In this document: in pieces, positions 2 to 38,847 of the stretch
Position numbering within the stretch: position 1 is the first letter of the stretch
How the letters are laid out: each line of letters starts with the position of its first letter
Sequence record: SRR31156797_7944
DNA length: 64,000 nucleotides
Reading direction: 5' to 3' (one strand)
Notes under the pieces: generated by a model
What the model was told of the DNA's origin: nothing
Seen by the model: only the letters and a program-made list of their open reading frames with translations
Database searches by the model: none
Made by a program: the position numbers and the translations under genes

Positions 2-892
2 GAGAAAAGCGTTGAAGCCTGGCCGGAAGGAGCCGTTACCATCGTCTGTCCCTGGGCCGTCGGGGGAGTCGCCGACATGGTCAACAGGAAAGCGGCGGCC
101 TACGGTCCCGATTACCTGGGAGTTCCCGTGCTGGCCACAAACGAGCTGGGAGCCGGAGGCAATGTCGCTCTCACCAATTACCTGAAGAACCAGCCCAACT
201 CCAACACTCTGATTTTCGGCGGAGAAGGGGCCTTCTCGATCGCTCCCCATATCGACGGCGCCGATGCCCTGCACTTCAGTTACGCCGATTACGAGCCCGT
301 CATCAACCTCTACTCATCCATATTCGTCATGACAGCCGATACGAAACTGAATATTACCGACCTGGACTCGCTGAAGGCCTACGGTCAGGGGAAGGAGGTA
401 AAGATCGCGGTCAACGGTACGGCCGGTTCGGAAGCCTTTCTCGCCAAGGCTCTGTTCAAAGAACTGGGCATAGAGCTTGAGCTTGTCAGCTATAACGGAG
501 CCAATCTGGCACTGGATGCGGCGGCCAAGGGCGAGACAGCCTTCGCCATATCCCATCAGTCCCAGGCCAAGGGCAGCGTGGAGGGAGGCATCCTCAGCCC
601 CGTCGTCATGTTTGACGAGACCGGTGTGGACAATGAGGTTTTTCACAATGTGAAGGGTGTGGGAGAGTACGGCTACAATGCCTATTTCAGGAACCGCTGT
701 CTGATCATGGCGCGGAAGGGGACGGATCCCCGGGTTCTCTCCAAGGTAAAGAACGCCTACCTGGCCATTCTTAACGAGCCGGAGATAGTAGATTTCTACG
801 ACTCTCTGATGATCGAGATAGACCCCCTTGATTCGGCGAAGATAGACAGGCACATAGCGGATGTAACCGCCATCGTTCAGAATAACCAGTAA
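2..892 (+). CDS. tctC: Tripartite tricarboxylate transporter substrate-binding protein (TctC/Bug family), 5'-truncated by the window edge
   Basis: The frame is open from position 2 (WPEGAVTIVCPWAVGGVAD, the typical Bug N-terminal motif); it lies upstream of tctB. Confidence 0.85.
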   Translation, partial: EKSVEAWPEGAVTIVCPWAVGGVADMVNRKAAAYGPDYLGVPVLATNELGAGGNVALTNYLKNQPNSNTLIFGGEGAFSIAPHIDGADALHFSYADYEPVINLYSSIFVMTADTKLNITDLDSLKAYGQGKEVKIAVNGTAGSEAFLAKALFKELGIELELVSYNGANLALDAAAKGETAFAISHQSQAKGSVEGGILSPVVMFDETGVDNEVFHNVKGVGEYGYNAYFRNRCLIMARKGTDPRVLSKVKNAYLAILNEPEIVDFYDSLMIEIDPLDSAKIDRHIADVTAIVQNNQ

Positions 893-1719: not shown

Positions 1720-2349
1720 CTACTCAATCATCATCAATTCTGGTCTATACAACCGACGGTTCTCAAAAGGTGGCTCCCATGTTGCCAGAGCATTATCTTG
1801 CGGTGTGAAGGTTATCGTTCCACTCTCGATCTGCCTCAGGCATTCTATCAGTAGTTTAACCCCCAATGGAAAAAGGGCCTCTCTCCAAAGGGCCTTGTAA
1901 TCCCACCCTTTTCTTATCAATACCGGCTCCTGCCGAATGATATCTCCCCCGTCGACCTTATCTGATAGTTGGTAAACGGTTCCACCTGTAACACTATCTT
2001 TACAGTGTATCGCCCATCGCACAGCGTCCCGCCCTCGATGTCTTGGGAGAAGAGATGGATGGTAACCTATTGCATGCTGAACTTTGGCTCTTACCTTACC
2101 GCTGATGAAATGGTGGGAATGCGCTGAAATTAGAACATCTGTCTCTTCGGGAATATCAGATGACAGCAGCTTCTCACTGTCAATAATTACCGGGGATTGG
2201 GGATCGGTATATGCTGCTACTTTCAATTTATCAAAGTATTTTCCTTCATTTGGGCATGCTATACCTGTGATCTTATGGCCCTCGTTTTTCACTGCTTTAT
2301 AAACAGCTGCGCCGAATGATTTCTGACCTGCAATAAATACGCTAAGCAT
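1720..2349 (-). CDS. Stand-alone formyltransferase/10-formyl-THF-binding domain protein (phage, mom position)
   Basis: GYHPSLLPRHRG...TGGTVYQLSDKVDGGDI motifs; 209 aa, so no C-terminal tRNA-binding domain. Confidence 0.85.
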   Translation of the reverse strand: MLSVFIAGQKSFGAAVYKAVKNEGHKITGIACPNEGKYFDKLKVAAYTDPQSPVIIDSEKLLSSDIPEETDVLISAHSHHFISGKVRAKVQHAIGYHPSLLPRHRGRDAVRWAIHCKDSVTGGTVYQLSDKVDGGDIIRQEPVLIRKGWDYKALWREALFPLGVKLLIECLRQIESGTITFTPQDNALATWEPPFENRRLYRPELMMIE

Positions 2350-3457
2350 TGTTGTTTTCTCCTATGTAAGCAAAGCCTTGTATAGCTCTAAAATGGCCGC
2401 CGTAACGGCAATGTCCTGAACTTCCCAAGTATTTCGGCGACCTTGGTTTTCCGCCCTTCACATATAACCGTGCGCTCTTCTGAATCCAGTTGGTATCGCG
2501 TCTTAGGGCAGCAGCGAGCTGGGGGTGTGAAGTATGAAATAGAACAGGGAGTTTCTTATTTCGCCGTCCATACCCATCAAGGTGATATTGGCAGACAGCG
2601 TTTAAGAATCTCACCCCGATACCGGCCCCCTGCCACTCCGGCATTACAACCAGCCTTGTAGCCCTGTAATAGCCGCACTGGAAAAAGGGACATACAGCGA
2701 GGTGAGCTACAGGTTCACCGTTCACTATACCAACGAAATAGTGAGCGGCGATCGGCATCGGTAGGTCTAAATAATAATGTGGTTTAAAGTACTTCCAGTA
2801 ACTTCCATCCGCCTGTTTAATTTCCAGTTTGATTTTGGGGCGTTGAAGACAGCTCCTTTCATAACGGCCATCTTTTGTATCTATAACCCAGTCAGGCTGA
2901 AGCCATTCGAGGATATCGTAATGGGGGGAGAGTATTACGACCTTTCGGCCTTTTACTCGCCTCCAGGACTTTTGAAAAGCGTTGGCTCCGATCTTTGCTA
3001 TTTGACGGTCTATAACGCTGGTAAACTCATCAAGAACGATCTCTGTTTCATTACTGAGAAGAAGCCTGGCCAGACCGGCACGGAATTGCTCTCCATTCGA
3101 TAAAATGTGGTGAGGTCTGAGCCATGATGGGACGCTTCCTAAACCGACTGAGGATAAGGCCGAAGTAACCCTGTTGAAGTCGGCTTCGGGAGCGATTGAA
3201 TCTATTATAGGGAGATCAGCGTTCCAACCCGAATTCAGGTCATAAATTCCGTTAGAGAACAGCTCTAATCCCAGAGAGGTTTTTCCGCTTCCTGAAGGCC
3301 CGACAATGGCCCCTATAGACCATTCGAACTCATCTATATCAGTATCTACATTGAGGCTGAATTTATGGCCGTACTCGGCATTAAATAAGCTCTTCACCCG
3401 TGCGGCCCTATAGGTATCGAAATTGTGGCATTTCCGGTGTACTTTCAGGGTTCTCAT
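2342..3457 (-). CDS. ABC-type ATPase fused to a GNAT (Mom-like) acyltransferase
   Basis: Walker A GPSGSGKT, signature LSNGE, Walker B IVLDEF; C-terminal GNAT motif RLVVMPEWQGAGIG. Confidence 0.85.
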   Translation of the reverse strand: MRTLKVHRKCHNFDTYRAARVKSLFNAEYGHKFSLNVDTDIDEFEWSIGAIVGPSGSGKTSLGLELFSNGIYDLNSGWNADLPIIDSIAPEADFNRVTSALSSVGLGSVPSWLRPHHILSNGEQFRAGLARLLLSNETEIVLDEFTSVIDRQIAKIGANAFQKSWRRVKGRKVVILSPHYDILEWLQPDWVIDTKDGRYERSCLQRPKIKLEIKQADGSYWKYFKPHYYLDLPMPIAAHYFVGIVNGEPVAHLAVCPFFQCGYYRATRLVVMPEWQGAGIGVRFLNAVCQYHLDGYGRRNKKLPVLFHTSHPQLAAALRRDTNWIQKSARLYVKGGKPRSPKYLGSSGHCRYGGHFRAIQGFAYIGENNNA

Positions 3458-16727: not shown

Positions 16728-17639
16728 TTACAGCCAGCGGCAAACCAGAACTTCAACAGCCTTATAGTTGGGGTTACTGCCGCCTCCGTCCTTCTTTTCA
16801 GCCTCGATCAGCGCCATGGCTGCGGCTCTGTTTTCGGGGGTAACAACCAGAAGGTTGGGCTGCAGGCCGAGCTTGGCACCGCCGTCCCTTGTGAAGGACA
16901 TCATCCTCTTGTAGGCTTCGTTGAAGTTCGCTTCGTTCAGCTCACCCCGGCATCCAATGGCCTGCTGCCAGAATCCATAACCGAATGCCCGGCGGACTCT
17001 AGCACCGTACAGGTACTGGTCCTTCATAAAGACCGTTTCCTGTTTGGAATCGGTGATGACTTCCAGTTCGGGTTTGGTCCTCTCCTGAAAGATCAGGGGC
17101 TTCACAGGGCGGCTGGTGTCCAAGAGGTACCAGGCGGGTTTATCCGTGACCAGCTCGTCGACGATGTTGCTTACAGAGCTGTCCGCGCCCGAACCATCTA
17201 CTTCAGCATTGATGGGGTGGTCCGTATCGAAAAAGTTCTGACCGTCGTAACAGAGGTTGGCAAAACCGGCCGGGAGGAGGCCGAACACTTCTCTGTCGAT
17301 ATGCTCCTGAACCTCCTGCCCCATGGCTTCAAACAGGGGATTATAGATCCCCATGTTGTCGTCTTCGATGTCCGTTCTTTCAACCTCAACGGTACCTTCA
17401 AACTTGTCGTTGGTGATGGTATACCCTTTCTCCCTGATGGACTTGAGGACTCTGTCCCCGACCCACTTTCTGAGCATGGGGAACTTCTCCAACCAGCCGT
17501 AGGTGTTCTCTTTGGAGGTGGAGGGTACGAGGGTTGCCACCTTGTTCCACTGGGTGGGGGCGGAATTCAGTGCTTTCTGGAAGATCCCGACAAAGAGCTT
17601 CCGCATGGTATCCAGAATTGCCGACTTAATTACAGCCAT
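16728..17639 (-). CDS. Mu-like major head subunit gpT
   Basis: 'YGWLEKFPMLRKWVGDR', 'CYDGQNFFDTDHP', 'KPLIFQER', 'GYGFWQ' motifs. Confidence 0.95.
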   Translation of the reverse strand: MAVIKSAILDTMRKLFVGIFQKALNSAPTQWNKVATLVPSTSKENTYGWLEKFPMLRKWVGDRVLKSIREKGYTITNDKFEGTVEVERTDIEDDNMGIYNPLFEAMGQEVQEHIDREVFGLLPAGFANLCYDGQNFFDTDHPINAEVDGSGADSSVSNIVDELVTDKPAWYLLDTSRPVKPLIFQERTKPELEVITDSKQETVFMKDQYLYGARVRRAFGYGFWQQAIGCRGELNEANFNEAYKRMMSFTRDGGAKLGLQPNLLVVTPENRAAAMALIEAEKKDGGGSNPNYKAVEVLVCRWL

Positions 17640-17642
17640 ATT

Positions 17643-18632
17643 TTACGCTTTCTCCTTTCCCAGGTACTCCCGGGCTTCTTCATCGCTGAGTCCCAGCTGT
17701 TCTGCCAGATTCTTTTCCTCAGCGTTCAGTTCGGTTTTCTCTTCGGGAGGCGTCCCCGGGGGTGTCTCTTCTCTGTTCGCCTCAACGATGACAGCGGCGC
17801 CCTCCATATGCTTCTCGAACTTCTCAAGGGACTCTTCACTGTTACACTGATCCAGATAGTAGTCCTTGCTGGAAGGAGCGATTTTCCCTTCCTTGACGGC
17901 CTTATCCACGGCAGCGGTAGCCTTCTCTTTCAGGCCGTCTTCCTTGATACGGTTCAGCTCGGTCTCGGCTGTCTCCGCTCTTTTCCTGACTGTGTTGTAG
18001 TCATCGCGGGGGACCATCTCCGAGTTGATCTCGGACTTAGTTTTCAGATCCTTGATAGCGTCAAGGACTTCCGTTTCGGTTGCTTCAGCATTCAGGCTGA
18101 GAGCAGTTAAAATGGATTCAGGAAACAATTCTTCGCCTCCTTTAGGCTCTTCGTGATTTAATGCCGGAAACGGCAGGTTGGGTGAATTGGTTAATCCGAT
18201 GGATTTGACGAACAGAACATCCCTTGATGCCCGGTTCACTCGGTATACGGGTGAGTAATAGCGGTACTCATTGTTTTCAAGGGCAGTCTGACCGGATGAG
18301 TTCCATTCGACTTTTCCGAATAGGGCCCCGTCTTCCGTTTTGAATTCTTTGATCCAGCCAACCGCCGGGGCGGATTCCCCCTTAGGGGCCTTCAGTTCGG
18401 TGGAGTGTTCAATATCAATAACAGGATCGAGACCACGCTTTTCCTGGTTCAGAGCGATTTTCTCAGCTCCTGGGTTCCGGTAGAACCGGCCGTCCCTTCC
18501 CCGGAATTTCTTATCAGAGGGGACGAGGGGGAGCCATTCGGGAACGGCCCCCCCTTGCGGGAGTGGGAGAACCCGGTTCATTTCCAGGTCTTCAGGTATG
18601 GTACTGTTCAGCTCATCTGCGGCGTTAAACAT
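17643..18632 (-). CDS. Mu-like capsid protease I/scaffold Z
   Basis: 'IDIEHST', 'APAVGWI', 'YRYYSPV', 'GLTNSPNL' motifs. Confidence 0.9.
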   Translation of the reverse strand: MFNAADELNSTIPEDLEMNRVLPLPQGGAVPEWLPLVPSDKKFRGRDGRFYRNPGAEKIALNQEKRGLDPVIDIEHSTELKAPKGESAPAVGWIKEFKTEDGALFGKVEWNSSGQTALENNEYRYYSPVYRVNRASRDVLFVKSIGLTNSPNLPFPALNHEEPKGGEELFPESILTALSLNAEATETEVLDAIKDLKTKSEINSEMVPRDDYNTVRKRAETAETELNRIKEDGLKEKATAAVDKAVKEGKIAPSSKDYYLDQCNSEESLEKFEKHMEGAAVIVEANREETPPGTPPEEKTELNAEEKNLAEQLGLSDEEAREYLGKEKA

Positions 18633-26862: not shown

Positions 26863-27771
26863 TTGAGCTTAGATAATCGATTTAAAGAAGTTCGTACTTT
26901 TCTGGGTGTGAATCAAAAGCAGTTTTCAGAAAAACTGGGGATTACTCAGGGCTCTCTAAGCAAAATTGAGTCAGGACGGCAGGAGCCCTCACTTTCGTTA
27001 ATAGATAAAATATTCCGCATAGGAATAAATATCACTTGGCTCCTTACCGGGGAGGGCTCTATGTTTCTAACTCCTCCCACTATCGGTAAACGTTTAATTG
27101 TGGCCCGGCAGGAATACGGCTGGGAACGGGATGTTGTCGCCTCCATGGGCGGGATTTCTATACCCGAATATGAAGCTATCGAAAGGGATGAACAGGAGCC
27201 TAATCTTGAGTTCCTTCAGAAGCTTGAAGGGAATACAAATATCAGCTCCCATTGGGTAATGACCGGCAAAGGGCAGATGTTCACTCTCAGCTCTAAGCCC
27301 CAGCTCCCTACACATATTCATACCGAGTCAAAAAGCATTACCCTTTCTGACCGCGATGATGTGATAATGGTACCGGTTCTCGATCAGTCCGTTTCCGCTG
27401 GCCCTGGGCAGGAGCTGACTGGCTCTACCTTTACCGATGTAACTATACCGATCCTGAACAGCATAATTTCCCCGTATCCGCCGCAGGCTATCAGGGTCGT
27501 TGAGGTCCGGGGGGATTCGATGACCGGCGTCAATCTCTTTGATGGAGACTTTGCGATCTTTGTTCAGGGGGAGGTCCGCTCCGATGGGATCTATGTGATC
27601 AGCATCGGCTCTGATCTGTTCGTGAAGCGGCTGGAATTTGACCCGTTTGAGAAGAAGATCAGCATCATTTCAGAGAACTCCCACTACGAAAAGAAAGTAG
27701 TGGACGCGGATTCTGAACTGGTAAGGATTGAAGGGAAGGTTATCGGGTGGATGCATAAGCATCCGTATTAA
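26863..27771 (+). CDS. CI-like repressor with two tandem XRE HTH domains and an S24 autopeptidase
   Basis: Two HTH units ending 'WLLTGEGSMF' and 'WVMTGKGQMF'; VSAG cleavage site, GDSM and VKRL catalytic motifs. Confidence 0.9.
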   Translation: MSLDNRFKEVRTFLGVNQKQFSEKLGITQGSLSKIESGRQEPSLSLIDKIFRIGINITWLLTGEGSMFLTPPTIGKRLIVARQEYGWERDVVASMGGISIPEYEAIERDEQEPNLEFLQKLEGNTNISSHWVMTGKGQMFTLSSKPQLPTHIHTESKSITLSDRDDVIMVPVLDQSVSAGPGQELTGSTFTDVTIPILNSIISPYPPQAIRVVEVRGDSMTGVNLFDGDFAIFVQGEVRSDGIYVISIGSDLFVKRLEFDPFEKKISIISENSHYEKKVVDADSELVRIEGKVIGWMHKHPY

Positions 27772-27811
27772 ATTCTACTTATAGCTAAAGTTCGGCGGGG
27801 AGTAGCAGTAA

Positions 27812-28618
27812 TTGGGCGATTCAGGACTCGTTTATCACTATACAGGAATCGATGGCCTACTTGGTATTCTGGGTAAAGAAGAGTTATGGCTTTCCAACTT
27901 TCTCTATTCAAATGATAAAGAAGAGCTTCAATTCGGTTTAAAGCTCTATAAGAAAATCATAGCATCACAGAGCTCTGACCTTGTAACAACTTTCGCTGAT
28001 ATCGTTGAAATGCTCTACGCCACTTTCCAATACTATATTTGTTCATTCTCCCCACACGGGAGTCAGTTAAGTCAATGGAGGGGTTATACATCGCCAGAGG
28101 GGGCCTTCTCAATTGGTGTTGATATTTCAGATCTTAGGTCTCTTAAAAATGGGACAGATTCAGGGATTTATATAGAAATAAAGGACTGTATATATGGGGA
28201 ATCAGCGGTAACTAACGAACTAGAAGAAGCAATAAAAAAAATACAGGATACTCTTATAGGCAGATTTCCAGACAATCTAGCGAAGCCTTCTCGAGTAAAA
28301 TCAATAACTGAAACGATATTTAATGAAATTGTTCCTATAATCGCTGTTGCCAAGCATTCGATTTTTTATCAAGAAGAAGAAATCAGGTATATGATGTTCC
28401 CTCAAAAGAGTACCGAGATGAGTTTTCGTCGGAATAATAACCTGATACTTCCTTATATTACTACTCCATTCCCGAGATCAATAATTAGAAAAATCAATAT
28501 TGGCCCCCAAGTCAAGCAGGAACAAAATTATGAGGCTATTAAATTGATGCTTCATTCATATGGGATGGAAAAAAATTGTGAGCTTGAAATTGTTGATTCT
28601 CCATATTGCGGTTGGTAA
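27812..28618 (+). CDS. DUF2971 family protein (moron)
   Basis: 'YHYT', 'SNDKEE', 'CSFS...LSQWRGY', 'K..F.QEEEIR', 'IGP' motifs; low GC. Confidence 0.8.
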   Translation: MGDSGLVYHYTGIDGLLGILGKEELWLSNFLYSNDKEELQFGLKLYKKIIASQSSDLVTTFADIVEMLYATFQYYICSFSPHGSQLSQWRGYTSPEGAFSIGVDISDLRSLKNGTDSGIYIEIKDCIYGESAVTNELEEAIKKIQDTLIGRFPDNLAKPSRVKSITETIFNEIVPIIAVAKHSIFYQEEEIRYMMFPQKSTEMSFRRNNNLILPYITTPFPRSIIRKINIGPQVKQEQNYEAIKLMLHSYGMEKNCELEIVDSPYCGW

Positions 28619-28663
28619 AAAAAAATTGAGACTTGTTATCATAAAATATGATCTGGAGCTTTA

Positions 28664-29701
28664 GTGAGAAAGAGTAATATCGTAAGAATACGTTTGAAAA
28701 AAAAACGTATCAGAAAAAGAGCAAAATTAGATAGAGTCCATTCGTATAAGAATTATTGGAAAAAAAAGAAGCGAAAGAATAAATGCTGCTCGAGTAATGG
28801 AGTTGGAGTCATTCGAAAGAACTGGATTGAATTCCCAGAGCATTTATCGATTACAGCTGATGCAGAAACACTCGTACATGTCTTAAAGGACGCGGAAAAA
28901 CAAGAGTTACCCACACTTAGTTTTCGTAAATCTAATTTTGTAACAATCAGTGCCGGGGTCTATTTAAGAGCGTTCTGTGATCATCTCAAGATTGAGGGTA
29001 ACGGTTATAAAATAAGTTGCCCTCCTAAAAACCGAAAAATGAGAGAAGTCCTCCAATTTTTAGACATACATAATTTTGGTGTGAAGATAAAAAGGGACGA
29101 TTTGGTTTGTTGGGAAATCAGGTCTTGGGACTTACATCAGTCTGCTCCGAACTTCGCAAAGCTTTTAATGGAGGATATCTTACCGGATGTGCTAAAGGGA
29201 AAGTTCCCCTCAGAGGATTTCAACGAGATTGCTTCAACCCTGCAGGAAGTATTATGGAATTGTGTTGAGCATGCTTATGATAAGAATGCAGAGTATAAGT
29301 TCAAGCGGTACTACTTAATTGCCGGGGAATACTTAAATTCCGACTATTTCGCCTTCTCAGTTGTTGACAGGGGGCAAGGTTTCTTAGAAAGTTTAAAGCA
29401 ACAGGATCTTTCATTTTACCAGAAGTACATGTCATCTGAATCTAAGATGATAAAAGCAGCTGTAAATGGACAAAGCGGAGCTGGGAAGCAGGATGAGGGA
29501 CGGGGCACAGGCCTTCAAAGTGTATTGGATCGTGTGAAGAAAATGAAAGGTGAATTTTTTATTTATAGTGGTAAGGGTTTTTATCATTTTAAGAAGGACT
29601 CCGAAATAATTGAAGATCATGATGAATTTATAAAAGGTGCTCTATTTACTATGATTCTGCCGATAAGTGAAAACAAAGAGGGCAGAGAGGATGAAACATG
29701 A
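28664..29701 (+). CDS. STAS-like region plus GHKL/HATPase domain protein (moron)
   Basis: 'EVLWNCVEHAY' N-box, 'DRGQG' G1-box, 'RGTGL' G2-box, 'KGAL' G3; low GC. Confidence 0.8.
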   Translation: MRKSNIVRIRLKKKRIRKRAKLDRVHSYKNYWKKKKRKNKCCSSNGVGVIRKNWIEFPEHLSITADAETLVHVLKDAEKQELPTLSFRKSNFVTISAGVYLRAFCDHLKIEGNGYKISCPPKNRKMREVLQFLDIHNFGVKIKRDDLVCWEIRSWDLHQSAPNFAKLLMEDILPDVLKGKFPSEDFNEIASTLQEVLWNCVEHAYDKNAEYKFKRYYLIAGEYLNSDYFAFSVVDRGQGFLESLKQQDLSFYQKYMSSESKMIKAAVNGQSGAGKQDEGRGTGLQSVLDRVKKMKGEFFIYSGKGFYHFKKDSEIIEDHDEFIKGALFTMILPISENKEGREDET

Positions 29702-30012
29702 AATTATTAAAAATATTAGATTGTGGAGATAGGTTTAAATATCAAGGACCAAGATTTAAAGAATTAGGCCCAGAATCTGGCGAAGAATTTAGGGATGACT
29801 TTTTTATCCCTTGGCTGAATGACAACAAAGGAGAAGAGCTTACAGTCGATTTTGAAGGTACACAGGTTTACACACCGTCCTTTCTTGAGGAGTGTTTTGG
29901 AGGAGCTATTAGAAAAGGTTTCGTTGAAGTTAAAACCATGAAGTTTATTAATATCAAATCGGAAGAACTGACAAGATTGAATAATTTTATTTCTAAGGCG
30001 AAACCTCAATGA
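29698..30012 (+). CDS. STAS-like DUF4325 protein
   Basis: 'SGEEFRD...VDFEGT..YTPSFLEECFGG' signature with the conserved Ser. Confidence 0.8.
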   Translation: MKLLKILDCGDRFKYQGPRFKELGPESGEEFRDDFFIPWLNDNKGEELTVDFEGTQVYTPSFLEECFGGAIRKGFVEVKTMKFINIKSEELTRLNNFISKAKPQ

Positions 30013-30473
30013 ATTCAGAGATCATATTATCATTACTATCTGGTTTGGTAGGTGTTATTGTCGGTAGCTTCATTCAAATTGCCTATACAATCAAATTTGA
30101 TAAGAAAAAAACTTCAGTCGACTATATAAAGCTTATTTGTACTGAATGGCTTGGTCTCTCTGCCCAAGCTCAGGAATTACTCAATAACCCTGCTGTATAT
30201 AATCATATGATTTTCAATCTACACATAAAAGAAAAAGCAAATCTTCTTAGTTATATAATGCCCTTCTATGAAAGAGACACCGTGAAGTCAAGGCAGATTT
30301 CAAAGTTGCAAGCATTAATTAAAGATAAGGGTGAAGAGTTTTCATTAGATCCAAGGTTTGAAGGGGCTCTAACAAAGGGAGAAAATGAAGGCGACAAAAG
30401 GCTATTCTTGGTTGAGCTAACGAACTTCATAAATGATATACATGAGAAGCTTACAGAAATTGCTCGTGATTAA
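30009..30473 (+). CDS. N-terminal TM helical protein (moron)
   Basis: 'LSGLVGVIVGS' TM anchor; ATGA-coupled to the DUF4325 gene. Confidence 0.65.
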   Translation: MNSEIILSLLSGLVGVIVGSFIQIAYTIKFDKKKTSVDYIKLICTEWLGLSAQAQELLNNPAVYNHMIFNLHIKEKANLLSYIMPFYERDTVKSRQISKLQALIKDKGEEFSLDPRFEGALTKGENEGDKRLFLVELTNFINDIHEKLTEIARD

Positions 30474-31228
30474 ATATTGAAAGATTCCCCAGGATTATGC
30501 TCAAATCCTGGGTCTATTCCCTCATACCCTTCATGAACCTCTCCGGTCCTCTTGTTCACGTAGGTTTTCTTTTTCAGCTCCGGCGGATCGGTCTTGATCT
30601 TGATCGTTTTCGTCGGCTTCCCATCTATCATGCTGGTCATATCCGGTAATCCCTTTTTCTGGAGTTGACGAAATTTCGCTCTTGAGACCGCACGGGATTT
30701 GCATTTACAACCCCATCCGTTTTTCGGATTATGGGTTTTCCAGAAGGGGTGATCCTTGGGGAGAACGAGCCCGTCCCATTCAAGGTGCGTAAGGCGGTGT
30801 TCCATCGAGGGGCCGATCCTATAGAGAAAGTACGGGTGGGCATCGGATTTCATCCCCCTCTCCCATACTCCTTTCTGATAGGCCTGGCCGGTGTTCACAT
30901 CGAATATCGTTTTGATCCGGCGGGGGCTCCCCAGCTGGGAATCGACCATTTCTCCCGTCTTCGGATCTTGGACCTTCTTAACACCCCACCAGCCTTTCTT
31001 TTTCAGGAGCTCCGTGGTTTCAGAGGCCCATTGCTTGTAGGTTTTCCCTTCTTTCATGGCCTGGGTGATGGATTTCCGGACATCTTCCAGGAGATCCGTT
31101 TCCATCATCTTGGCAATGGTAAAGGCCTGGTTGTGCTCCTGCAGCCAGACATCCATATAGTGAAAGGAAGGTTTCAGCCCTTTATTCTCAAGGTATGCGA
31201 TCGCTTCTTTAGGGATAGGAGGGGCCAT
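30470..31228 (-). CDS. Mu gpF/gp30 minor head morphogenesis protein
   Basis: 'AFTIAK', 'KKGWWG', 'GSPRRIKTIF', 'FWKTHNPKNGWGCKC' motifs. Confidence 0.9.
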   Translation of the reverse strand: MAPPIPKEAIAYLENKGLKPSFHYMDVWLQEHNQAFTIAKMMETDLLEDVRKSITQAMKEGKTYKQWASETTELLKKKGWWGVKKVQDPKTGEMVDSQLGSPRRIKTIFDVNTGQAYQKGVWERGMKSDAHPYFLYRIGPSMEHRLTHLEWDGLVLPKDHPFWKTHNPKNGWGCKCKSRAVSRAKFRQLQKKGLPDMTSMIDGKPTKTIKIKTDPPELKKKTYVNKRTGEVHEGYEGIDPGFEHNPGESFNI

Positions 31229-32766
31229 CAGATTTCCTCGAACTCGTCATCGCCCAGAGCACGGCCCTTGAAGGTAGCCAATGCAATCTGTTTCACTGTG
31301 TTTTCCGTGTTCAGCTCACCCAGGAGATCGGGCAGTTTTCCCAACAGCTCCTCATAGCTGCTGCAGCTCTGGACGGCTTTATCCAATGACTCTTTTACAG
31401 GGTCGGCCAGGGCCATCCAATCGCTGTTCAGTGCCTCGTTAAGCTCTTCAAGAGAGTCGGCGGGAGGTTCGGGGGCCTGCCGGTTTAGCTCTGTATTCAT
31501 TTCCTTTACAGCGGGAGTTTTGGGCTGGAGAACATCATCATTTTCATCCGGGCGGCTAAGCCCAAGCTTGCTATAAAGCTGGTCGGTACTGACCCTGAAA
31601 CCGAGTGGAACAAGCTTCTCAACAGCTTTGACCAGGTTGGGGATATTCTCCGGACGGGGAACGGGTAATTTGAACTCGGGATATACCTTCTGTACCCCGT
31701 GGTTCAGATCGACATAGGGCTTGATCAGATCCCGGTTGATCGTTGCGGCCAGCTGGTCGGCGTCGCTCTCACGGATCTCCTGGCGGACCTCGTTATGGAG
31801 GTCCCCTTTGTACTGGCCTCCCTCTGCGTCAGTACTCATCGTCTGGCCCAGCACCCCCTTGGAGATCTGCTTATCGATCCAGTCTGCCAGGCGTTCGAAT
31901 AGATCCACATTCCCGGATGACTGGACACCGTTGACGATCTCAATCTCCATGGACTTGGGGATGATCGCTCCTACATCCCGGCCAAGATTCCTTACGGCTG
32001 AGCGGAGGATGGCCTTGTCCTTATCGGAACCCTTGCGGCCGTCATATTTTCCCAGGCGGATGGGATAGCCATAGACCTCACAGAAGGCTGCCCAACCGGC
32101 CAGATCATAGCTCTTGATGAGATAGTAGTAGGCCACGGGGAGGGCAAGGCCGCCGCGGATCGGTAAGCCGCTCTTCAGGTGAGGCTCGTGAATGATGTAC
32201 TTATAGGGGGAAAGGGGCTGTGTTTCGCTACCGGTTCTCAAGAGGAGATCCACGCCGGTGTCTCTGTCATACTCGAACCAACGCGGATCCCGGCGTTTAT
32301 AGGCCTTGGGCATCCAAAGAGATTCGGAGGTTTCCCAGATAATTTCATTGACCGCGTACCCTTTTCCAAGAGAGTCCAGTGAGTCCTTGATCATCAATTT
32401 GAATGCCGGTTTCTTGACCAGTGTTTTCTGGATATCCTCTGCAATCTCCAGGGCCTGGGCGCTATCATCCGCCGGCTCGATTACGGGGCTCAAAGCTTCA
32501 ATCGCATGTTTACGGGTTCCGAGGACAGAACGGTAATGAAGATCCCGCTCCTCCATCTCTTCAGCCAGTGTCAGATAATCATGAGCCTGCCCGTTCAGCG
32601 CGCCGGTAACCAGAGTTGCCAGTGACCCGGGATCAAGGGCGGAGGCAACTTCAGAGGCGTCTATAGCCTGACGGATGGAAAAGCTGTTCGGCCCTGATTC
32701 TTCACTCTGCAGAGTGGATTTCTTAATACCGAACTTACTAAGTAGATTACCAATCGTCATCTTCAT
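31228..32766 (-). CDS. Portal protein (Mu gp29/DUF935)
   Basis: 'EEMEERDLHY', 'FCEVYGYPIRLGKY', 'ISKGVLGQT' motifs. Confidence 0.9.
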   Translation of the reverse strand: MKMTIGNLLSKFGIKKSTLQSEESGPNSFSIRQAIDASEVASALDPGSLATLVTGALNGQAHDYLTLAEEMEERDLHYRSVLGTRKHAIEALSPVIEPADDSAQALEIAEDIQKTLVKKPAFKLMIKDSLDSLGKGYAVNEIIWETSESLWMPKAYKRRDPRWFEYDRDTGVDLLLRTGSETQPLSPYKYIIHEPHLKSGLPIRGGLALPVAYYYLIKSYDLAGWAAFCEVYGYPIRLGKYDGRKGSDKDKAILRSAVRNLGRDVGAIIPKSMEIEIVNGVQSSGNVDLFERLADWIDKQISKGVLGQTMSTDAEGGQYKGDLHNEVRQEIRESDADQLAATINRDLIKPYVDLNHGVQKVYPEFKLPVPRPENIPNLVKAVEKLVPLGFRVSTDQLYSKLGLSRPDENDDVLQPKTPAVKEMNTELNRQAPEPPADSLEELNEALNSDWMALADPVKESLDKAVQSCSSYEELLGKLPDLLGELNTENTVKQIALATFKGRALGDDEFEEI

Positions 32767-34249
32767 TGTCGTTTCTCCATCTGCTTCCATTTCCTACGGA
32801 CTCATATTCATAGGGGGAATAATCGTTCTCATCGTTTTCATACGCATGCACCAGTAATACCCCGCCGACGACGGAATCACCGTGCCGCTTCTTTTTCTTA
32901 TCATCGTGGTCGGAGGTGCGCTCTGTGATCACCGGTACGCCCTTATCCATCATAACAACGCGGTGATCGTCTACGATGTTTGGATCTTCGGGGATGATCA
33001 GTTCGTTGTCTTCCATCCGGGCCTTGTATTTGGGCATGAACTCCATATAAAAGGTCCGGGAGATCATCACCATCTGAATGTAGGATTCACCGTAGTGCTG
33101 GGCCGCGTACTCAGCAATCATCTGGCCATTTCCCCTGGCATCGATGGAACCGCTGTAAAACCGGGGGAGGTTATCCAGGCAGTAGTATAGGATTTGAAGC
33201 TGCTGCTGGAACGGGACATTCCTCAACTCAAGATAGACCAGGGATTTCAGGAGCCGTTCATCCTCTTCGGAGGCAAAGGCGATGATGGACAGGTCACCGG
33301 AGCGGGCGAAGTCCATGCCGAAATAAGTAGGCTTGGCCGGGGCATTCTCGATGATGGCCTCCAGATCTTCTTTAATCCATTTAGCCGTCTTCTTTTTCCG
33401 GTGCCGTTCTGACTTAAAGGTGAAGTCATCGGTGCATTCATATTTCAGTACCGGGATCTCATCGTCCATGCAGGATTCGACAAGGGAGCGGGAGATATAG
33501 CGGTCCCCGCCTTTGGTCGGGACGCAGTACAACTCCTCAGATGCACCGTCACCGTAATCCGCCAGAAGCTTATCTAGCCATTTCTTTTCTCCTTCGGCTG
33601 TCCATTCCTTCCCGGTCCTGAGGCAGATCCGTTTGTATAGTCCTTGATCAAGAGCATCCTGGATCGTTGTTCGGTGCAGTGAGTATTCCAACTTCCGGCT
33701 GCGGATATCCTTGATCAGTTCATTGAAGGTGTTATCTTCCCCGTTATGAGTACTCATAATGCTTACGGAACCGCCCCACATGAGAAGGGCAAAGGCTGCT
33801 TTAAGCAGCTCTTTCAATGATTCAACAAATCCCGCTTCATCGATAATGACCCTTCCCTGCTTAGACCTGAGAGATCGGGCTTCAGAGGGTAAACCACAAA
33901 TCTGGAATCCCGAGGCGAAGGTGATTCGGAATACTGTAATATCCTTATCCTCATCGGAAAGGATTGTTTCCTCCTCCATTTCTCCACAGGCCATATTCAA
34001 CAGTTTTGCCCACATGGCACAATCGGAGATGAACTGGCGTGTCATCTCTTTGTTGTAAGCAAGATAGTAGGTGTTCTGACCGCCTTCTTCCCTTGTCTTA
34101 GCGGCTTCCGCAGTTGATAGGAACGCCTCCCCGAAACTGGCACCGATACGTCGAGATTTTTCCCATACTTTAACCTGGGAATTATCCCTGCACCATTCCA
34201 TCTGATAGGGGAGAAGAACATCTATATCAAGGAGTTCCTGATCTGTCAT
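32747..34249 (-). CDS. Terminase large subunit (Mu gp28-like)
   Basis: 'LLPYQ', 'EKSRRIG', 'IIDEAGF', 'GMDFARSGD', 'RHGD' motifs. Confidence 0.9.
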   Translation of the reverse strand: MTDQELLDIDVLLPYQMEWCRDNSQVKVWEKSRRIGASFGEAFLSTAEAAKTREEGGQNTYYLAYNKEMTRQFISDCAMWAKLLNMACGEMEEETILSDEDKDITVFRITFASGFQICGLPSEARSLRSKQGRVIIDEAGFVESLKELLKAAFALLMWGGSVSIMSTHNGEDNTFNELIKDIRSRKLEYSLHRTTIQDALDQGLYKRICLRTGKEWTAEGEKKWLDKLLADYGDGASEELYCVPTKGGDRYISRSLVESCMDDEIPVLKYECTDDFTFKSERHRKKKTAKWIKEDLEAIIENAPAKPTYFGMDFARSGDLSIIAFASEEDERLLKSLVYLELRNVPFQQQLQILYYCLDNLPRFYSGSIDARGNGQMIAEYAAQHYGESYIQMVMISRTFYMEFMPKYKARMEDNELIIPEDPNIVDDHRVVMMDKGVPVITERTSDHDDKKKKRHGDSVVGGVLLVHAYENDENDYSPYEYESVGNGSRWRNDNEDDDW

Positions 34250-34800
34250 ATGGAACCAATAATCTTCTTTGTGATTTTCAGAACTGCAGATTCTTCCGTT
34301 CCGGATTTCTTCAGCTCCGTTTCAGCTATAGCGGCCGCTTCCTCCAAGGCCTCTTTTCTTATCCGGGACTCTCGCTCTGCGTTCAGCTTTTCGGCCTGTT
34401 CCAGCTCCTTCAGTGAGCGGCTAACTTTATGGATCAGGTTGATCACGACTTCGGGATCTACCTCACCGCTTGCTTTGAGATCTTCAATTTCACCGATCAA
34501 ATCGAATGAGATGAGCCGGATCTGTTCATTGACAACCTTACCCAGGATATTCCTTGTTCCACCGCCCATCTTATCCATATAGACTTCGGAAACCTCTCGG
34601 GCCTGACGAGCTTTCTCTATCTGCCGCTCCATTCTCGCGGCATAACGGTTAACGGCACTTTGGCTGATGACATCCTCACCGGCCCGGTCATTGATAAGAG
34701 CGGTGATATCCTTCTGAGTTACGGATGGGGTTTTGAGTAATTGGATAAGCTCTGATCGGAGTTCATCGGGGAGAAGATCTATACTTGATTTTCTACCCAT
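34246..34800 (-). CDS. Terminase small subunit-like (Mu gp27/DUF3486)
   Basis: 'MGRKSSIDLLP...ISQSAVNRY' motif. Confidence 0.85.
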   Translation of the reverse strand: MGRKSSIDLLPDELRSELIQLLKTPSVTQKDITALINDRAGEDVISQSAVNRYAARMERQIEKARQAREVSEVYMDKMGGGTRNILGKVVNEQIRLISFDLIGEIEDLKASGEVDPEVVINLIHKVSRSLKELEQAEKLNAERESRIRKEALEEAAAIAETELKKSGTEESAVLKITKKIIGSI

Positions 34801-34803
34801 GAA

Positions 34804-35097
34804 TTACTCCGGGGCGGGGCGTTCAACCCCTTCGAGGCGGTCATTTCCTTCAGCTACATCAAGGCCCTTCATTGTGAGTTTAACGGTTTTAAGGTTTCCG
34901 CCCAGCTCCTCCACGGTGACAAGGCCCTGGCCTTTCAACCAGTCAATCTGCTCGTCGGTTTTTTCCAGGCTGATGGCGTGGCCGAACTCCTTGAGTACCT
35001 TCTGGAGAATACCGTTATTGTGGGAGTATCCGTTGTCTCCCTTTAGAAAATCAAGGATAATTCTCCGCTGGTTCGGCCCGAAAATATCGTGATTCAT
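34804..35097 (-). CDS. Mu gp26-like winged-helix protein
   Basis: 'WLKGQGLV...LTMKGLDVAEG...GVERP' motif. Confidence 0.8.
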   Translation of the reverse strand: MNHDIFGPNQRRIILDFLKGDNGYSHNNGILQKVLKEFGHAISLEKTDEQIDWLKGQGLVTVEELGGNLKTVKLTMKGLDVAEGNDRLEGVERPAPE

Positions 35098-35456
35098 TCT
35101 ATCTTTCCTCCGTTCTTTATAAGCCAGTCTTCCATAACGCGAGTAATGTTATTCAGGCCGGTCAGCTGCCCCTCAATATGAGAAAGCCGAGTATTGATTT
35201 CCTTGTAGGCACTGTTTTCAATATTATTGATCCGCTCATGAAGAGAATGGTCGCCGTTCCTCCGTAGCTCTTCCCATTCTTTTATAGATTCCTTGACGCA
35301 ATCCAGCTCCTCTTTAAAAGCGCTTTTTATTGCCTCGATTTCAGCGAGGTGTTTCTTTTGCTGAGCTGTCTGGATTCTCCAAACGACTGTGACTACGGAA
35401 GCCACTGTCGTTATGATCTGAACGGAAACAGAAATGACAATTTGAACGTTACTCAC
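35094..35456 (-). CDS. TM plus coiled-coil protein of the lysis-packaging block
   Basis: N-terminal hydrophobic helix, heptad-rich; position matches Mu gp25. Confidence 0.55.
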   Translation of the reverse strand: MSNVQIVISVSVQIITTVASVVTVVWRIQTAQQKKHLAEIEAIKSAFKEELDCVKESIKEWEELRRNGDHSLHERINNIENSAYKEINTRLSHIEGQLTGLNNITRVMEDWLIKNGGKIE

Positions 35457-35790
35457 CGGGGCTCCTCGTGTAGTATTTCAGTTGCCTTTCAAGCTCCCCG
35501 ATAAATCGCCGGTATTCATGAATATTTTTCTCCAAATTCCGGTAATCGGCATAAGACAAATAGAGTCCTGTAGGCAGCCCTTCGGGATCTATTTTGTGAT
35601 CCTCGTAATGGGCTAAAAGATCGCCCCAATGAACAGGTAATAAAATTGGGCTGGAGGGCTGGTTTATTACCTGCTCAGGGGCGCTGATTGATACTGATTC
35701 AGGGGCGGTTTTACAGCTACTTAAAAAGAGAGTTTGCGCGGTCCACAAGAGAACTATCATCAGTTTCATCAAGCTCCTGTTTCTGGGCAT
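35449..35790 (-). CDS. Putative outer-membrane spanin lipoprotein (Rz1-like)
   Basis: AAGGAGG RBS; signal peptide with lipobox-like FLSSC; overlaps the 3' end of the Rz-like gene. Confidence 0.6.
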   Translation of the reverse strand: MPRNRSLMKLMIVLLWTAQTLFLSSCKTAPESVSISAPEQVINQPSSPILLPVHWGDLLAHYEDHKIDPEGLPTGLYLSYADYRNLEKNIHEYRRFIGELERQLKYYTRSPGE

Positions 35791-35995
35791 CTGCTTCCTC
35801 CTTAATTCGCTGCTGATCATTGTGCAAATCAATGATTTCCTCCCTGTCCTCTTCCGTATCCTTGAGCTGCTTTTCCGCCTTCTTTTTTTCCTTCTTCAGG
35901 GTTCTAACCTTCTTCCCCCTGAAGATAAGAATCGAAACAAGAATTGTGATTAGCAGCCCAAGGTATGGGATGGCCTTTACCAGCATGCCTGTCAC
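35717..35995 (-). CDS. Putative inner-membrane spanin (Rz-like)
   Basis: N-terminal TM followed by a charged coiled coil. Confidence 0.55.
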   Translation of the reverse strand: MTGMLVKAIPYLGLLITILVSILIFRGKKVRTLKKEKKKAEKQLKDTEEDREEIIDLHNDQQRIKEEADAQKQELDETDDSSLVDRANSLFK

Positions 35996-36216
35996 TTCAG
36001 ACCTCTAGCGACGGCCACGCCTCCGGCTGTTTTTATCCCGAGGAGGGATATCCCCGTACCCAGGATCATACCGATAAGCGCAACCGGATCATTGGGATTC
36101 TCCTGGAAGAAAGAGAACCATGCCATAGCCAGCCCATTCACTAAGAAGATCACCGCGGTGAGCTTCTTGGTGGACTTGTAAAAAGGCTTTGTTCCTGGCT
36201 GGGATTGTTCAGCCAT
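35992..36216 (-). CDS. Small 2-TM protein, holin candidate
   Basis: 'FYKSTKK' followed by two TM helices; in the lysis cassette. Confidence 0.5.
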   Translation of the reverse strand: MAEQSQPGTKPFYKSTKKLTAVIFLVNGLAMAWFSFFQENPNDPVALIGMILGTGISLLGIKTAGGVAVARGLK

Positions 36217-36532
36217 TCTTAACCCCGGATATGATGCCGACGGCTGCTCCTGCGATAACCAGAACGGAGCCCACAACGGTTGTTATCACTGATTCCGTAA
36301 CACCCCCGAAGATAGCCAACATTGTACCGAGTATCACCATGAAACCGATAAGATAAGCTTTCCAACGTTCCGCCGGTTTTCGCTTCTTTGCCTCCCCGAG
36401 CATGACCATCGCAAGCCCGGCCGAAGCCGCTACGATTTCGAGAATCCAGGACTGGGGGAACTCCCAGAAGAACCCGACCGCTACGGCAATGATTACCAGA
36501 ACGATCCCGAAGATAGACAGCATGTTTTTCAT
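36209..36532 (-). CDS. 4-TM membrane protein, holin/antiholin candidate
   Basis: Highly hydrophobic 107 aa; follows the endolysin. Confidence 0.5.
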   Translation of the reverse strand: MKNMLSIFGIVLVIIAVAVGFFWEFPQSWILEIVAASAGLAMVMLGEAKKRKPAERWKAYLIGFMVILGTMLAIFGGVTESVITTVVGSVLVIAGAAVGIISGVKNG

Positions 36533-36550
36533 ATTTCCTCCATTGGAAAA

Positions 36551-37003
36551 TTAAGCTTCAAAACCTATGAGGATGTAATTCCCGTAGCCCTTGTCATAGC
36601 CCTTTGCAATGACTTTGCCGTTGTGGCTTCTGGACCAGAGAATAGTCCAGTCTTCCCCGGTGGGGATGATGTCGAGAGAGAGGTGCCGTACCCGCCGGTC
36701 CCGTAGATAATAGGGACAATCCCAGACCGTTGTGATTGAGTACGGGGTTTTGAAAGCGCCCTCGGCACAGTACAAAAGCTGCTTCAGATCTGCGGTGACC
36801 TTTTTCCGGTTCGGCTTGATCCCCATGTCTTTGAGGCGCCAAAGGGCGCTCCTGATTCCGTGAATAACATCCAGGTGTAAGTGAGGGCCGGAAGAACAGC
36901 CTGTATTCCCCATTACTCCGATTATCTGATTACGAGTAACGGTTGATCCGATCTCTAATGTTGAGGGTGTTCGTAAATGGGCATATCGGGCTGTGTACTT
37001 CAC
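36551..37003 (-). CDS. M23 family metallopeptidase endolysin, circularly permuted
   Basis: 'YAHL...GNTGCSSGPHLH' at the N-terminus; 'HLSLD' (HxxxD) and 'GKV...GYGNYILI' at the C-terminus. Confidence 0.8.
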   Translation of the reverse strand: MKYTARYAHLRTPSTLEIGSTVTRNQIIGVMGNTGCSSGPHLHLDVIHGIRSALWRLKDMGIKPNRKKVTADLKQLLYCAEGAFKTPYSITTVWDCPYYLRDRRVRHLSLDIIPTGEDWTILWSRSHNGKVIAKGYDKGYGNYILIGFEA

Positions 37004-37021
37004 GGCATCTCCTTAGCAAGT

Positions 37022-37184: not shown

Positions 37185-37248
37185 GTTATTTCCCGGTTAA
37201 ACCCGGAATTATCGCAGGATTCACTGAGTATTATCGCATTACCCTACA
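37185..37248 (-). promoter_or_regulatory. Right end with putative transposase-binding repeats
   Basis: TGCGATAAT twice at 22-bp spacing plus a degenerate third copy; ends in CTACA on the plus strand. Confidence 0.7.
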
Positions 37249-37254
37249 CCTAGG
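37249..37254. repeat. Right target-site duplication CCTAGG
   Basis: Identical to 1627-1632. Confidence 0.9.
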
Positions 37255-37278: not shown

Positions 37279-38847
37279 ATGAATCTGTTCTTAGAAGGTT
37301 TTCAACAGCTGTTTCAGCTGTCCAACTTTATAGCCATGAATATCGGTCTTCTCCTGGGGATGGTTTTCGGTGCCATCCCGGGGCTGACCGTCATCCTCTG
37401 TATCGTTCTCTTTCTCCCCTTCACCTACTCCATGGGAGCGATACAGTCCTTTATGTTTCTGCTGGGGATGTACTGCGCCGGAAGCTACGGCGGCTCCATC
37501 TCAGCCATCCTGATCAAGACGCCGGGAACGCCCCACGCCACGGCCACCATGCTGGACGGATACCCCCTCTCCCAGAGAGGCCAGACCCACAAGGCTCTGA
37601 ACCTGGCCCTCCAGGCGTCCACCTTCGGAGGGATCGTCAGCGCCGTGGTTCTCCTCTTCCTGGCCCCCCAGGTCAGCCTCTTCGCCCAGAAGATGGGAAC
37701 CCCCGAGTACTTCCTCGTCTGCGCCTTCGGCCTGACCATTATCGCGGGAGTGTCCGGCAAGACCCTGACCAACGGCATCATCGCCGGGGCCCTCGGGCTC
37801 TTCATCGCCACCATCGGCCTCGATCCCATGACCAGCAGCACCCGCTTCATCTTCAGCAATATCAACCTTTACTCAGGGTTCGATCTGGTGATCTGCCTTA
37901 TCGGGCTCTTCGCTCTGAGCGAGGTGCTGAACAAGAGCGGAAAGACGAAAAAGGTCTCCAGGGTCAGCCTCCACAGGGAGGAGAAAAAGCGGAACGCCAT
38001 TACGAAGGCGGATTACAGGAAGATGGCCCGCCCGGCTGTCCTGTCCTCCCTGATCGGCGTGGTCATCGGAATCATTCCCGGAACGGGAGCCTCCATGGCC
38101 TCCTTCGTCAGCTATGACCGGGCCAGGAGGATGAGCAAGACCCCGGAGGAATTCGGGAAGGGTTCGATCGAAGGCATCGCCGCCACCGAGACGGCCAATA
38201 ACGCGGTCACCGGCGCCACCCTGATCCCCCTGCTGACCCTGGGCATACCCGGCGATGCCTCGGTAGCCATCATGCTGGGGGCCCTGATGATCAACGGCCT
38301 CACCCCGGGACCGAAGCTGTTCGCCGACCACGGGGTGACCATGTACGCCATCATGCTGGGACTGATCTTCGTCAACATATTCATGTTCCTGCAGGGGAAG
38401 TTCCTGACCCGGCTTTTCGCCCGTATCATCCGGATTCCCATCCCGGTCCTGACACCGCTTATCGTGATATTCTGTTTTGCCGGAGCCTATTCGGTACAGA
38501 CCTCCCTGTTCGACATTCATGTGGCCATCGTCTTCGCGGCTGTCGCCTATGTTCTGAACAAACTGGAGGTCCCGGTGATTCCCGTCCTTCTGGGACTGGT
38601 GCTGGGGCCCATCACGGAAGAGAACTTCAGAAGGGCCCTGATCCTGTCCGACGGCAGCTGGAACATCTTCATATCCTCTCCCATCAGCCTGGCTCTTCTG
38701 GCGATCATCGCCGTCTCCCTCTTTATCATCATCAAAGGGAAGCTGAGCGAGCCTGCCGGGGAGGGCGAAGCGATCGGCTCTCCCGGAGACAGGCTATCCG
38801 ATATAGAAAAATTAAAAACCGAGGAAGAACAACATGCGCAAGCCTAA
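37279..38847 (+). CDS. tctA: Tripartite tricarboxylate transporter large membrane subunit TctA
   Basis: 'GAIPGL', 'YGGSISAILIKTPGTP', 'ETANNA', 'PLLTLGIPG' motifs. Confidence 0.95.
   Translation: MNLFLEGFQQLFQLSNFIAMNIGLLLGMVFGAIPGLTVILCIVLFLPFTYSMGAIQSFMFLLGMYCAGSYGGSISAILIKTPGTPHATATMLDGYPLSQRGQTHKALNLALQASTFGGIVSAVVLLFLAPQVSLFAQKMGTPEYFLVCAFGLTIIAGVSGKTLTNGIIAGALGLFIATIGLDPMTSSTRFIFSNINLYSGFDLVICLIGLFALSEVLNKSGKTKKVSRVSLHREEKKRNAITKADYRKMARPAVLSSLIGVVIGIIPGTGASMASFVSYDRARRMSKTPEEFGKGSIEGIAATETANNAVTGATLIPLLTLGIPGDASVAIMLGALMINGLTPGPKLFADHGVTMYAIMLGLIFVNIFMFLQGKFLTRLFARIIRIPIPVLTPLIVIFCFAGAYSVQTSLFDIHVAIVFAAVAYVLNKLEVPVIPVLLGLVLGPITEENFRRALILSDGSWNIFISSPISLALLAIIAVSLFIIIKGKLSEPAGEGEAIGSPGDRLSDIEKLKTEEEQHAQA

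Follow-up and report, generated by a model that had tools for sequence, protein, structure and literature searches.

Judged from the sequence, one gene in an intact Mu-like prophage encodes a zinc metallopeptidase domain of the M23/LytM type that is truly circularly permuted, a conclusion on which three independent sequence tests agree. The gene lies at 36551..37003 on the minus strand of our window, a stretch of 64,000 nucleotides from sequence record SRR31156797_7944, and encodes a candidate endolysin of 150 amino acids (aa). The explanation that best accounts for our results as a whole, and that we consider likely, is a permuted M23 peptidase in the setting of a holin-dependent endolysin. 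The assignment draws on an intact open reading frame (ORF), a match to the Pfam family PF01551 (Peptidase_M23), 34 full-length homologues and an AlphaFold2 model with a mean predicted local distance difference test score (pLDDT) of 95.9. The start codon is a GTG, preceded at a distance of 5 nt by the ribosome-binding site AAGGAG (37009..37014, minus strand, read from the sequence), and it is backed by homologues that begin M-K-Y-T-V-R-Y-A-H-L at residue 1. A sequence-only reading made before this analysis had noted the ribosome-binding site and a protein that opens with YAHL and closes with HLSLD...GKV...GYGNYILI. The ORF bears out both points, with an N-terminus of MKYTARYAHL...GNTGCSSGPHLHLD and a C-terminal part of ...RHLSLDIIP...NGKVIAKGYDKGYGNYILIGFEA.

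The collinear M23 profile has its HxxxD motif before its HxH motif, and in the 150-aa protein this order is reversed. PF01551 matches the protein in two stretches (48.8 bits against a cut-off of 28.7, E = 8.5e-13), the best of which places residues 2-48 on profile positions 44-89 of 96. We also built a canonical-order M23 profile from 72 domain windows cut from the canonical proteins in our hit lists. Because these proteins had been retrieved by similarity to the first 50 residues of the 150-aa protein, a match of its last third to canonical N-terminal halves is independent of the retrieval. Residues 2-51 fall on positions 83-131 of this profile (E = 1.7e-20) and residues 98-146 on positions 33-78 (E = 5.9e-7), with the HxxxD motif aligned to the HkGiD of the profile. 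The hidden Markov model search that had been suggested as a check therefore finds two partial M23 matches out of order, both of them significant. Only profile positions 79-82 are left unmatched between the C-terminal and N-terminal matches, which places the break in the hairpin turn that links the GYGN and YxHL strands, where the earlier reading had put it.

Standard profiles had been predicted to match such a protein only partly, and the results from Pfam, PHROGs and NCBIfam agree. Eighteen PHROG families match partially, none of them past residue 73, and 8 NCBIfam models match far under their cut-offs (the best scores 32.3 bits against 500); in both collections the best stretch covers only about residues 2-50. 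A sequence search of the PDB matched 22 chains, for all of which the best stretch covers only about residues 3-50, and none of these 22 solved structures has the permuted M23 order. In TagE (5j1l), phmmer places residues 5-46 of the query on chain residues 111-151 and, weakly, residues 119-146 on 76-103, again in swapped order.

Pairwise alignments led to the same conclusion. P0177, a 145-aa protein from a metagenomic protein library, is the nearest canonical-order relative in our sample. It shares a DxIPT..DW motif with the permuted proteins, and differs from them in its normal order (HxxxD at 44, HxH at 126) and in an N-terminal, signal-like hydrophobic segment. BLASTP aligns query residues 80-146 with residues 15-81 of P0177 (E = 8e-9) and query residues 7-66 with residues 91-142 (E = 1e-8), in swapped order. 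By contrast with this crossing pair, P0110, a protein of 1143 aa with two Pfam M23 stretches, aligns collinearly: query residues 3-141 run along residues 919-1052 (E = 9e-11) and span the junction between the two M23 domains, so that the query's HLH is paired with HLH in the first domain and its HLSLD with HNGID in the second. A second tandem protein, P0158, behaves likewise against the permuted-family profile, where it matches positions 3-151. Circular permutants are classically recognized by their collinearity with a tandem duplicate, and here this occurs together with two significant local alignments in swapped order. Out-of-order profile matches, BLASTP and tandem alignments, along with conserved active-site residues, thus uphold the central proposal of the sequence-only reading, that the M23 halves are swapped with all zinc ligands retained.

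These comparisons divide the protein into three parts, all encoded on the minus strand. Residues 2-51 (36851..37000) correspond to the canonical C-terminal half, with the YxHL strand (H9), GNTG and HLH (H41 and H43). Residues 85-146 (36566..36751) correspond to the canonical N-terminal half, with the ITT strand, H107xxxD111, GKV and GYGNYILI. Between them, residues 52-84 (36752..36850) form a connector from the old C-terminus to the old N-terminus, which shows no match to canonical M23 profiles and carries a family-specific motif of Q75, F79, D81 and F84. DSSP assigns it two short helices in the model (residues 57-60 and 73-80). From work on LytM and lysostaphin, we take H43, H107 and D111 to be the zinc ligands and H9 and H41 to be the catalytic histidines.

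We modeled the protein with AlphaFold2 on a 35-row alignment and obtained one compact domain, with a predicted template modelling score (pTM) of 0.90 and 137 of 150 residues at a pLDDT of at least 90. The chain runs through strands at residues 2-10, 27-31 and 42-48, the two short helices of the connector, a strand at 88-92, a helix at 97-103, and strands at 110-114, 120-122, 129-137 and 141-149. VIA-align lists seven M23 chains for this model, each covering one half only, with Z between 2.5 and 2.9. Five of them put their C-terminal halves on model residues 1 to 81-89, among them LytM (2b0p), whose residues 252..316 lie on model residues 1..83 (Z 2.9, 65 residues, root-mean-square deviation 2.6). 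The other two put their N-terminal halves on model residues 74 or 75 to 150: EnpA (6smk) with residues 2..70 on 74..150 (Z 2.7), and 2gu1 with residues 200..272 (Z 2.6). The few M23 rows that Foldseek returned from BFVD are likewise half-domain matches, of 44-55 columns and root-mean-square deviations of 0.5-1.6 Å. This pattern is what a permutant should give to a sequential aligner. The structure prediction that had been proposed as a check accordingly returns a confident single domain, in which the first part fits solved M23 C-terminal halves and the last part fits N-terminal halves.

Whole-model matches are absent, which taken at face value is a point against this fold: Foldseek found none at E <= 0.001 in the PDB and BFVD, and VIA-align found no chain with Z >= 5 among 48,161, the best M23 chain reaching 2.9. 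We count both results as neutral, because these aligners appear to follow chain order and such methods are expected to fail on a permutant. In the arrangement that we propose, the new termini would sit at the canonical hairpin turn between the GYGN and YxHL strands, and the connector, of about 30 residues, would bridge the old termini and allow the chain to rebuild the usual fold and metal site. The restored LytM fold would then hold H43, H107 and D111 on zinc, with H9 and H41 as catalytic residues. From conservation and the confidence of the model, we infer that HLSLD reaches the metal site.

The same geometry could in principle be satisfied between chains, as the new terminal strands pair in the canonical hairpin, and the half-domains might instead pair in a head-to-tail, domain-swapped oligomer in which each active site is drawn from two subunits. 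We regard this arrangement as quite improbable. A single chain is predicted as one confident domain, the conserved connector is long enough for closure within the chain, and relatives fused to other modules bear the domain at either end of larger proteins.

We then asked how widely the permuted order is shared. A word-indexed search returned 35 proteins, and for 34 of them, which are 143-174 aa long, the match extends over 98-100% of the query with an identity of 33-48%; H9, H41, H43, H107 and D111 are invariant in their alignment. An exhaustive search of representatives at 50% identity matched 2695 proteins at E <= 0.001 and 92 at E <= 1e-10. Of the 185 proteins retrieved, 131 align with 80% or more of the family profile in a single collinear stretch, and 126 are permuted by profile and motif criteria (HxH before HxxxD, no canonical pair). 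Five of the 131 are not counted as permuted: two are tandem canonical proteins, two are permuted with motif variants and one has a chance motif. Most of the permuted proteins are small, with 104 of the 126 standing alone at no more than 200 aa and mostly at about 150 aa. Their median spacing from HxH to HxxxD is 64 residues, compared with a median of 80 residues from HxxxD to HxH in 50 canonical-order proteins. Out-of-order profile matches are found in 117 of 129 family members, and in 60 of these both parts reach E <= 1e-3. Full-length homologues of the same order, another of the checks that had been proposed, therefore exist in number, whether one counts the 34 of 35 word-indexed matches or, more strictly, the 126 of 185.

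Because the gene is the outermost of the prophage, with its start 245 bp from the terminus, we considered whether the odd order could be an artefact of local rearrangement or mark a pseudogene at the prophage end. The homologues refute this reading and leave it practically no probability: order, length and start are the same in 34 of 35 matches at 33-48% identity, the layout is common to 126 of 185 retrieved proteins, and the ORF is intact with its ribosome-binding site. Full-length matches also occur in 14 viral loci in IMG/VR, among the best 80 of 383 confirmed loci that we considered.

Conservation across the family is concentrated in the presumed active site. In an alignment of 132 rows, H107 and D111 are kept in all 132 and H41 and H43 each in 131. 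For H9 the number is 125, and alignment gaps account for six of its seven misses; we put these gaps down to entries truncated at the N-terminus. The full set of five catalytic or zinc-ligand residues is present in 124 of the 132 sequences. The connector is conserved as well, with Q75 in 106 rows (and glutamate in its place in 22) and D81 in 103. These numbers bear on the idea that the protein is a LytM-type factor without catalytic activity of its own, which would activate or regulate another hydrolase in the way of EnvC and NlpD. Degenerate LytM domains are common, and 'MepM / murein hydrolase activator NlpD' is the label that one source gives to a family member. Given the retention of the five residues, and since our PHROG and Pfam scans found no amidase or other hydrolase encoded nearby, we consider such a role very improbable.

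To place the permuted proteins relative to canonical ones, we used FastTree to build a tree of 78 permuted and 49 canonical rows from 99 canonical profile columns. Rows with less than 75% column coverage (12 permuted rows) were left out, and proteins with neither a whole-domain match nor both swapped half-matches were excluded. One bipartition, with a support of 0.966, contains all 78 permuted rows and, from the canonical set, only P0177. As we read the tree, it points to a single origin of the permuted family. The most likely route would begin with an M23 domain duplicated in tandem, from which both outer halves were then lost. At least two canonical motif pairs are present in about 22 of the 50 proteins of canonical order, a count made by motif spacing that may include chance pairs, and tandem precursors are therefore common.

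Pfam annotation of 22 longer relatives, among which P0110 is the canonical tandem, shows the permuted domain fused to other modules in 14. The partners are NAGPA (9), LysM (2), SH3_5 (1), GH25 (1) and S8 (2, one of them also with NAGPA), all of which are typical lysin architectures. Database labels give little hint of this family. Neighbours in the ESM Atlas fall into clusters of 51-474 members that are mostly viral and named only 'Peptidase family M23 domain-containing protein', and the members of the family cluster are labeled only 'hypothetical protein' or with the MepM/NlpD name quoted above.

The position of the gene suggests what the enzyme does. The sequence-only reading held that it heads a lysis cassette, and transmembrane (TM) proteins and an Rz-like spanin do follow it directly, all on the minus strand. 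Beginning 18 nt downstream is the gene for a 107-aa protein with four TM segments predicted by a hydropathy scan (36209..36532), a candidate holin by topology only. The same scan predicts two TM segments in a 94-aa ORF (35992..36276) that is a second holin or antiholin candidate and whose true start may lie further in. A 92-aa protein (35717..35995) combines an N-terminal TM segment with a charged tail and, by hydropathy and position, is an i-spanin candidate. Its gene overlaps that of a lipoprotein with the lipobox LSSC (35449..35832), an o-spanin candidate that matches the Rz-like spanin family phrog_812 (E = 2e-7) and probably starts at an internal methionine (about 35769), overlapping the 3' end of the i-spanin gene. 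The genes for the small and then the large terminase subunit come after the spanin candidates. Because spanins are present, we infer a diderm host.

The peptidase itself has no hydrophobic segment, its maximum 19-residue Kyte-Doolittle mean being 0.49 against a TM threshold of 1.6, and residue 2 already lies in a core strand of the model, which leaves no signal peptide or signal-arrest-release segment. We found no endolysin PHROG in the other 48 prophage and flank ORFs scanned, and no muralytic Pfam family in 35 ORFs comprising the prophage ORFs without a PHROG function and five host flank genes. On this sequence evidence, the peptidase is most likely the holin-dependent endolysin of the prophage. 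It would be made late in the lytic cycle as a soluble, cytoplasmic protein with no export signal, and the adjacent four-TM holin candidate would release it to the periplasm through holin lesions. There it would cut peptide cross-links of the peptidoglycan sacculus, after which the overlapped i-spanin and o-spanin pair would disrupt the outer membrane and complete lysis.

We examined the gene's surroundings in 13 viral loci from the IMG/VR set (L001-L014, with L010 left out as a duplicate of L009). The peptidase gene follows tail-fibre or tail genes in L001, L002, L003 and L013, and in L009 a PHROG holin (E = 6.8e-22) comes directly after it. A predicted TM or lipobox ORF is directly adjacent in 10 of the 13 loci, as read by eye and not from a tool tally. 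When the window's lysis and packaging neighbours were searched with phmmer against the ORFs of L001-L014, only the peptidase itself had homologues there. Searching genome contigs with a smaller family alignment added four loci, in Chlorobium, Candidatus Stahlbacteria and other metagenome-assembled genomes (MAGs). Loci L082 and L084 are on the same 44.8-kb MAG contig, SOIB01000205.1, with the peptidase gene at both contig ends; the copy at the start is complete, and the one at the end breaks off at residue 115. Such an arrangement suggests a phage genome, circular or with terminal redundancy, that was binned into a Candidatus Stahlbacteria MAG.

Several points weigh against the endolysin assignment. 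The gene lies between portal or head-morphogenesis genes and the head protease, and not after tail genes, in three of the 13 viral loci (L004-L006). Neither the 107-aa nor the 94-aa holin candidate matches a PHROG or Pfam family at threshold. Among GenBank phages, none of 50 matching records covers at least 80% of the query, and the family therefore has no experimental anchor. The bond cleaved is also a guess: we would suppose a DD-endopeptidase, purely by analogy with the M23 enzymes MepM and ShyA of Gram-negative bacteria.

The head-module loci raise the alternative of an active permuted M23 enzyme that is an accessory wall hydrolase, serving entry, superinfection effects or wall remodelling, while another gene product lyses the cell. 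Many canonical phage M23 domains do sit in tape-measure or virion proteins, and several ORFs of this prophage have no assigned function. The 150-aa protein, however, stands alone with no structural-protein partner domain, TM proteins and spanins directly follow its gene in the window and in most related loci, and the PHROG and Pfam scans found no other muralytic domain in the prophage. We consider an accessory role rather unlikely and favor the peptidase as the endolysin.

The protein keeps the motifs and the five histidine and aspartate residues of canonical M23/LytM enzymes (PF01551; TagE 5j1l, LytM 2b0p, lysostaphin 4lxc/4qp5, ShyA 6ue4, EnpA 6smk, StM23 9gy1 and phi29 gp13 3csq). Each of its halves matches them in sequence and structure, and it presumably shares their zinc-dependent peptide cleavage of peptidoglycan. 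Unlike them, it has its halves reversed and its termini in the GYGN/YxHL hairpin, joins the old termini through the conserved helical connector and lacks a signal peptide.

Stand-alone M23 endolysins are known from phages. MMPphg of Meiothermus phage MMP17 is a 210-aa enzyme for which zinc-stimulated lytic activity is reported; it has the canonical order (H105, D109 ... H163 ... H196, H198) and is not a close relative (PMC7448439). The TG-CA Mu/B3-like prophages of Leptospira encode an M23-domain putative endolysin beside predicted holins and spanins (PMC8705779). They resemble our prophage in being Mu-like, in their TG...CA ends and in the M23 peptidase that adjoins holins and spanins, and some of these transposable prophages also have a separated TerS-TerL-portal block, as here; the available sections of that paper do not discuss the motif order of the M23 proteins (PMC8705779).

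Permutation itself has precedents among related folds and functions. The NlpC/P60 wall hydrolases include circularly permuted families (YaeF/poxvirus G6R and LRAT) with swapped catalytic residues, although these differ from M23 in having a papain-like fold and Cys/His chemistry (PMC6403190). Barrel-sandwich hybrid (HABAS) domains, among which M23 is listed, come in three topologies related by circular permutation, marking the fold class as permutation-tolerant; those permutations are between families, and the part of the account available to us reports none within M23 (PMC11515920). A full-text literature search for permuted M23, LytM or lysostaphin, whose coverage does not extend to subscription journals, returned nothing on the subject. 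The permuted M23 phage family, shared by many proteins, has apparently not yet been described. We lean towards the fuller view that it is a large phage-borne family, formed by an undescribed natural permutation of M23/LytM from a tandem repeat, that supplies a minimal 150-aa endolysin and a differently pluggable module.

M23 peptidases, lysostaphin, LytM and ShyA among them, serve as models for the study of wall hydrolases and as leads in the search for enzyme antibacterials. With its five active-site residues in place, a natural permutant is a ready-made test of how well the fold tolerates re-wiring, and termini on another face of the domain give new options for fusion engineering. The relocated termini would make a catalytic module that can be plugged in differently, as in the relatives fused at either end to LysM, SH3_5, GH25, NAGPA or S8. 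For annotation, the restricted view of Pfam, PHROGs and NCBIfam, which see little beyond the first third of the protein, means that members are labeled as fragments, 'hypothetical' or 'MepM/NlpD'. For diderm hosts, the family would also add a compact type of endolysin that cultured phage genomes lack. As structural evolution, it is a neat and well-supported case, and one that opens no long-standing question.

The element that carries the gene is an intact Mu-like prophage of 35.6 kb, which separates the host genes tctC (77-892) and tctB (1083-1631) from tctA (37279-38847). It is of the transposable TG...CA type with a 5-6 bp target duplication. At one end, CCTAGG (1627-1632) is followed by TGTAGCC from 1633; the other end (37242..37254, read from the sequence) consists of ...CCCTACA, ending at 37248, and the second copy of the duplication, CCTAGG (37249-37254). 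The stop codon of tctB lies inside the target duplication, and the tctB and tctA ORFs of the tctCBA operon are both intact. The peptidase gene is transcribed inward from the 37248 end. PHROGs identify a transposase, a transposition protein, a Mor-like late activator, a repressor, terminase subunits, a portal, a MuF-like protein, a protease, a major head protein, a sheath, a tape measure and a baseplate wedge protein, and Pfam adds GemA.

Compared with Mu, the gene order is unusual. The block of lysis, TerS, TerL, portal and MuF genes (30470-37003) is set apart from the protease and major head genes (16728-18632), and the intervening early region holds a plus-strand repressor block (26863-30473), a Ner-like regulator, transposase A, transposition protein B, DUF3164, GemA and Mor. 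We rejected this odd order as a cause of the permutation, since homologues on unrelated contigs share the M23 order.

After the repressor, at 27812-30473 on the plus strand, are genes for a DUF2971 protein, a histidine-kinase-like ATPase (HATPase_c_2), a STAS-like DUF4325 protein and an ORF without a match. Given where they lie, the four look like prophage cargo, perhaps a defence system; PADLOC gave no match on these genes. Near the other prophage end, at 1720-3457 on the minus strand, a formyltransferase-like gene (PF00551) and an ABC-ATPase/GNAT fusion (phrog_11143) have a moron-like appearance, and the only PADLOC match on the prophage cargo is a weak one to mad3, on the ABC/GNAT ORF (E = 6e-10). 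Within 40 bp of the prophage terminus, TTATCGCA occurs twice (37209-37238), and these copies may be transposase-binding repeats. Finally, the GC content of the prophage is 49.7% (over 1635-37249), compared with 57.6% in the flanking host DNA of the window.

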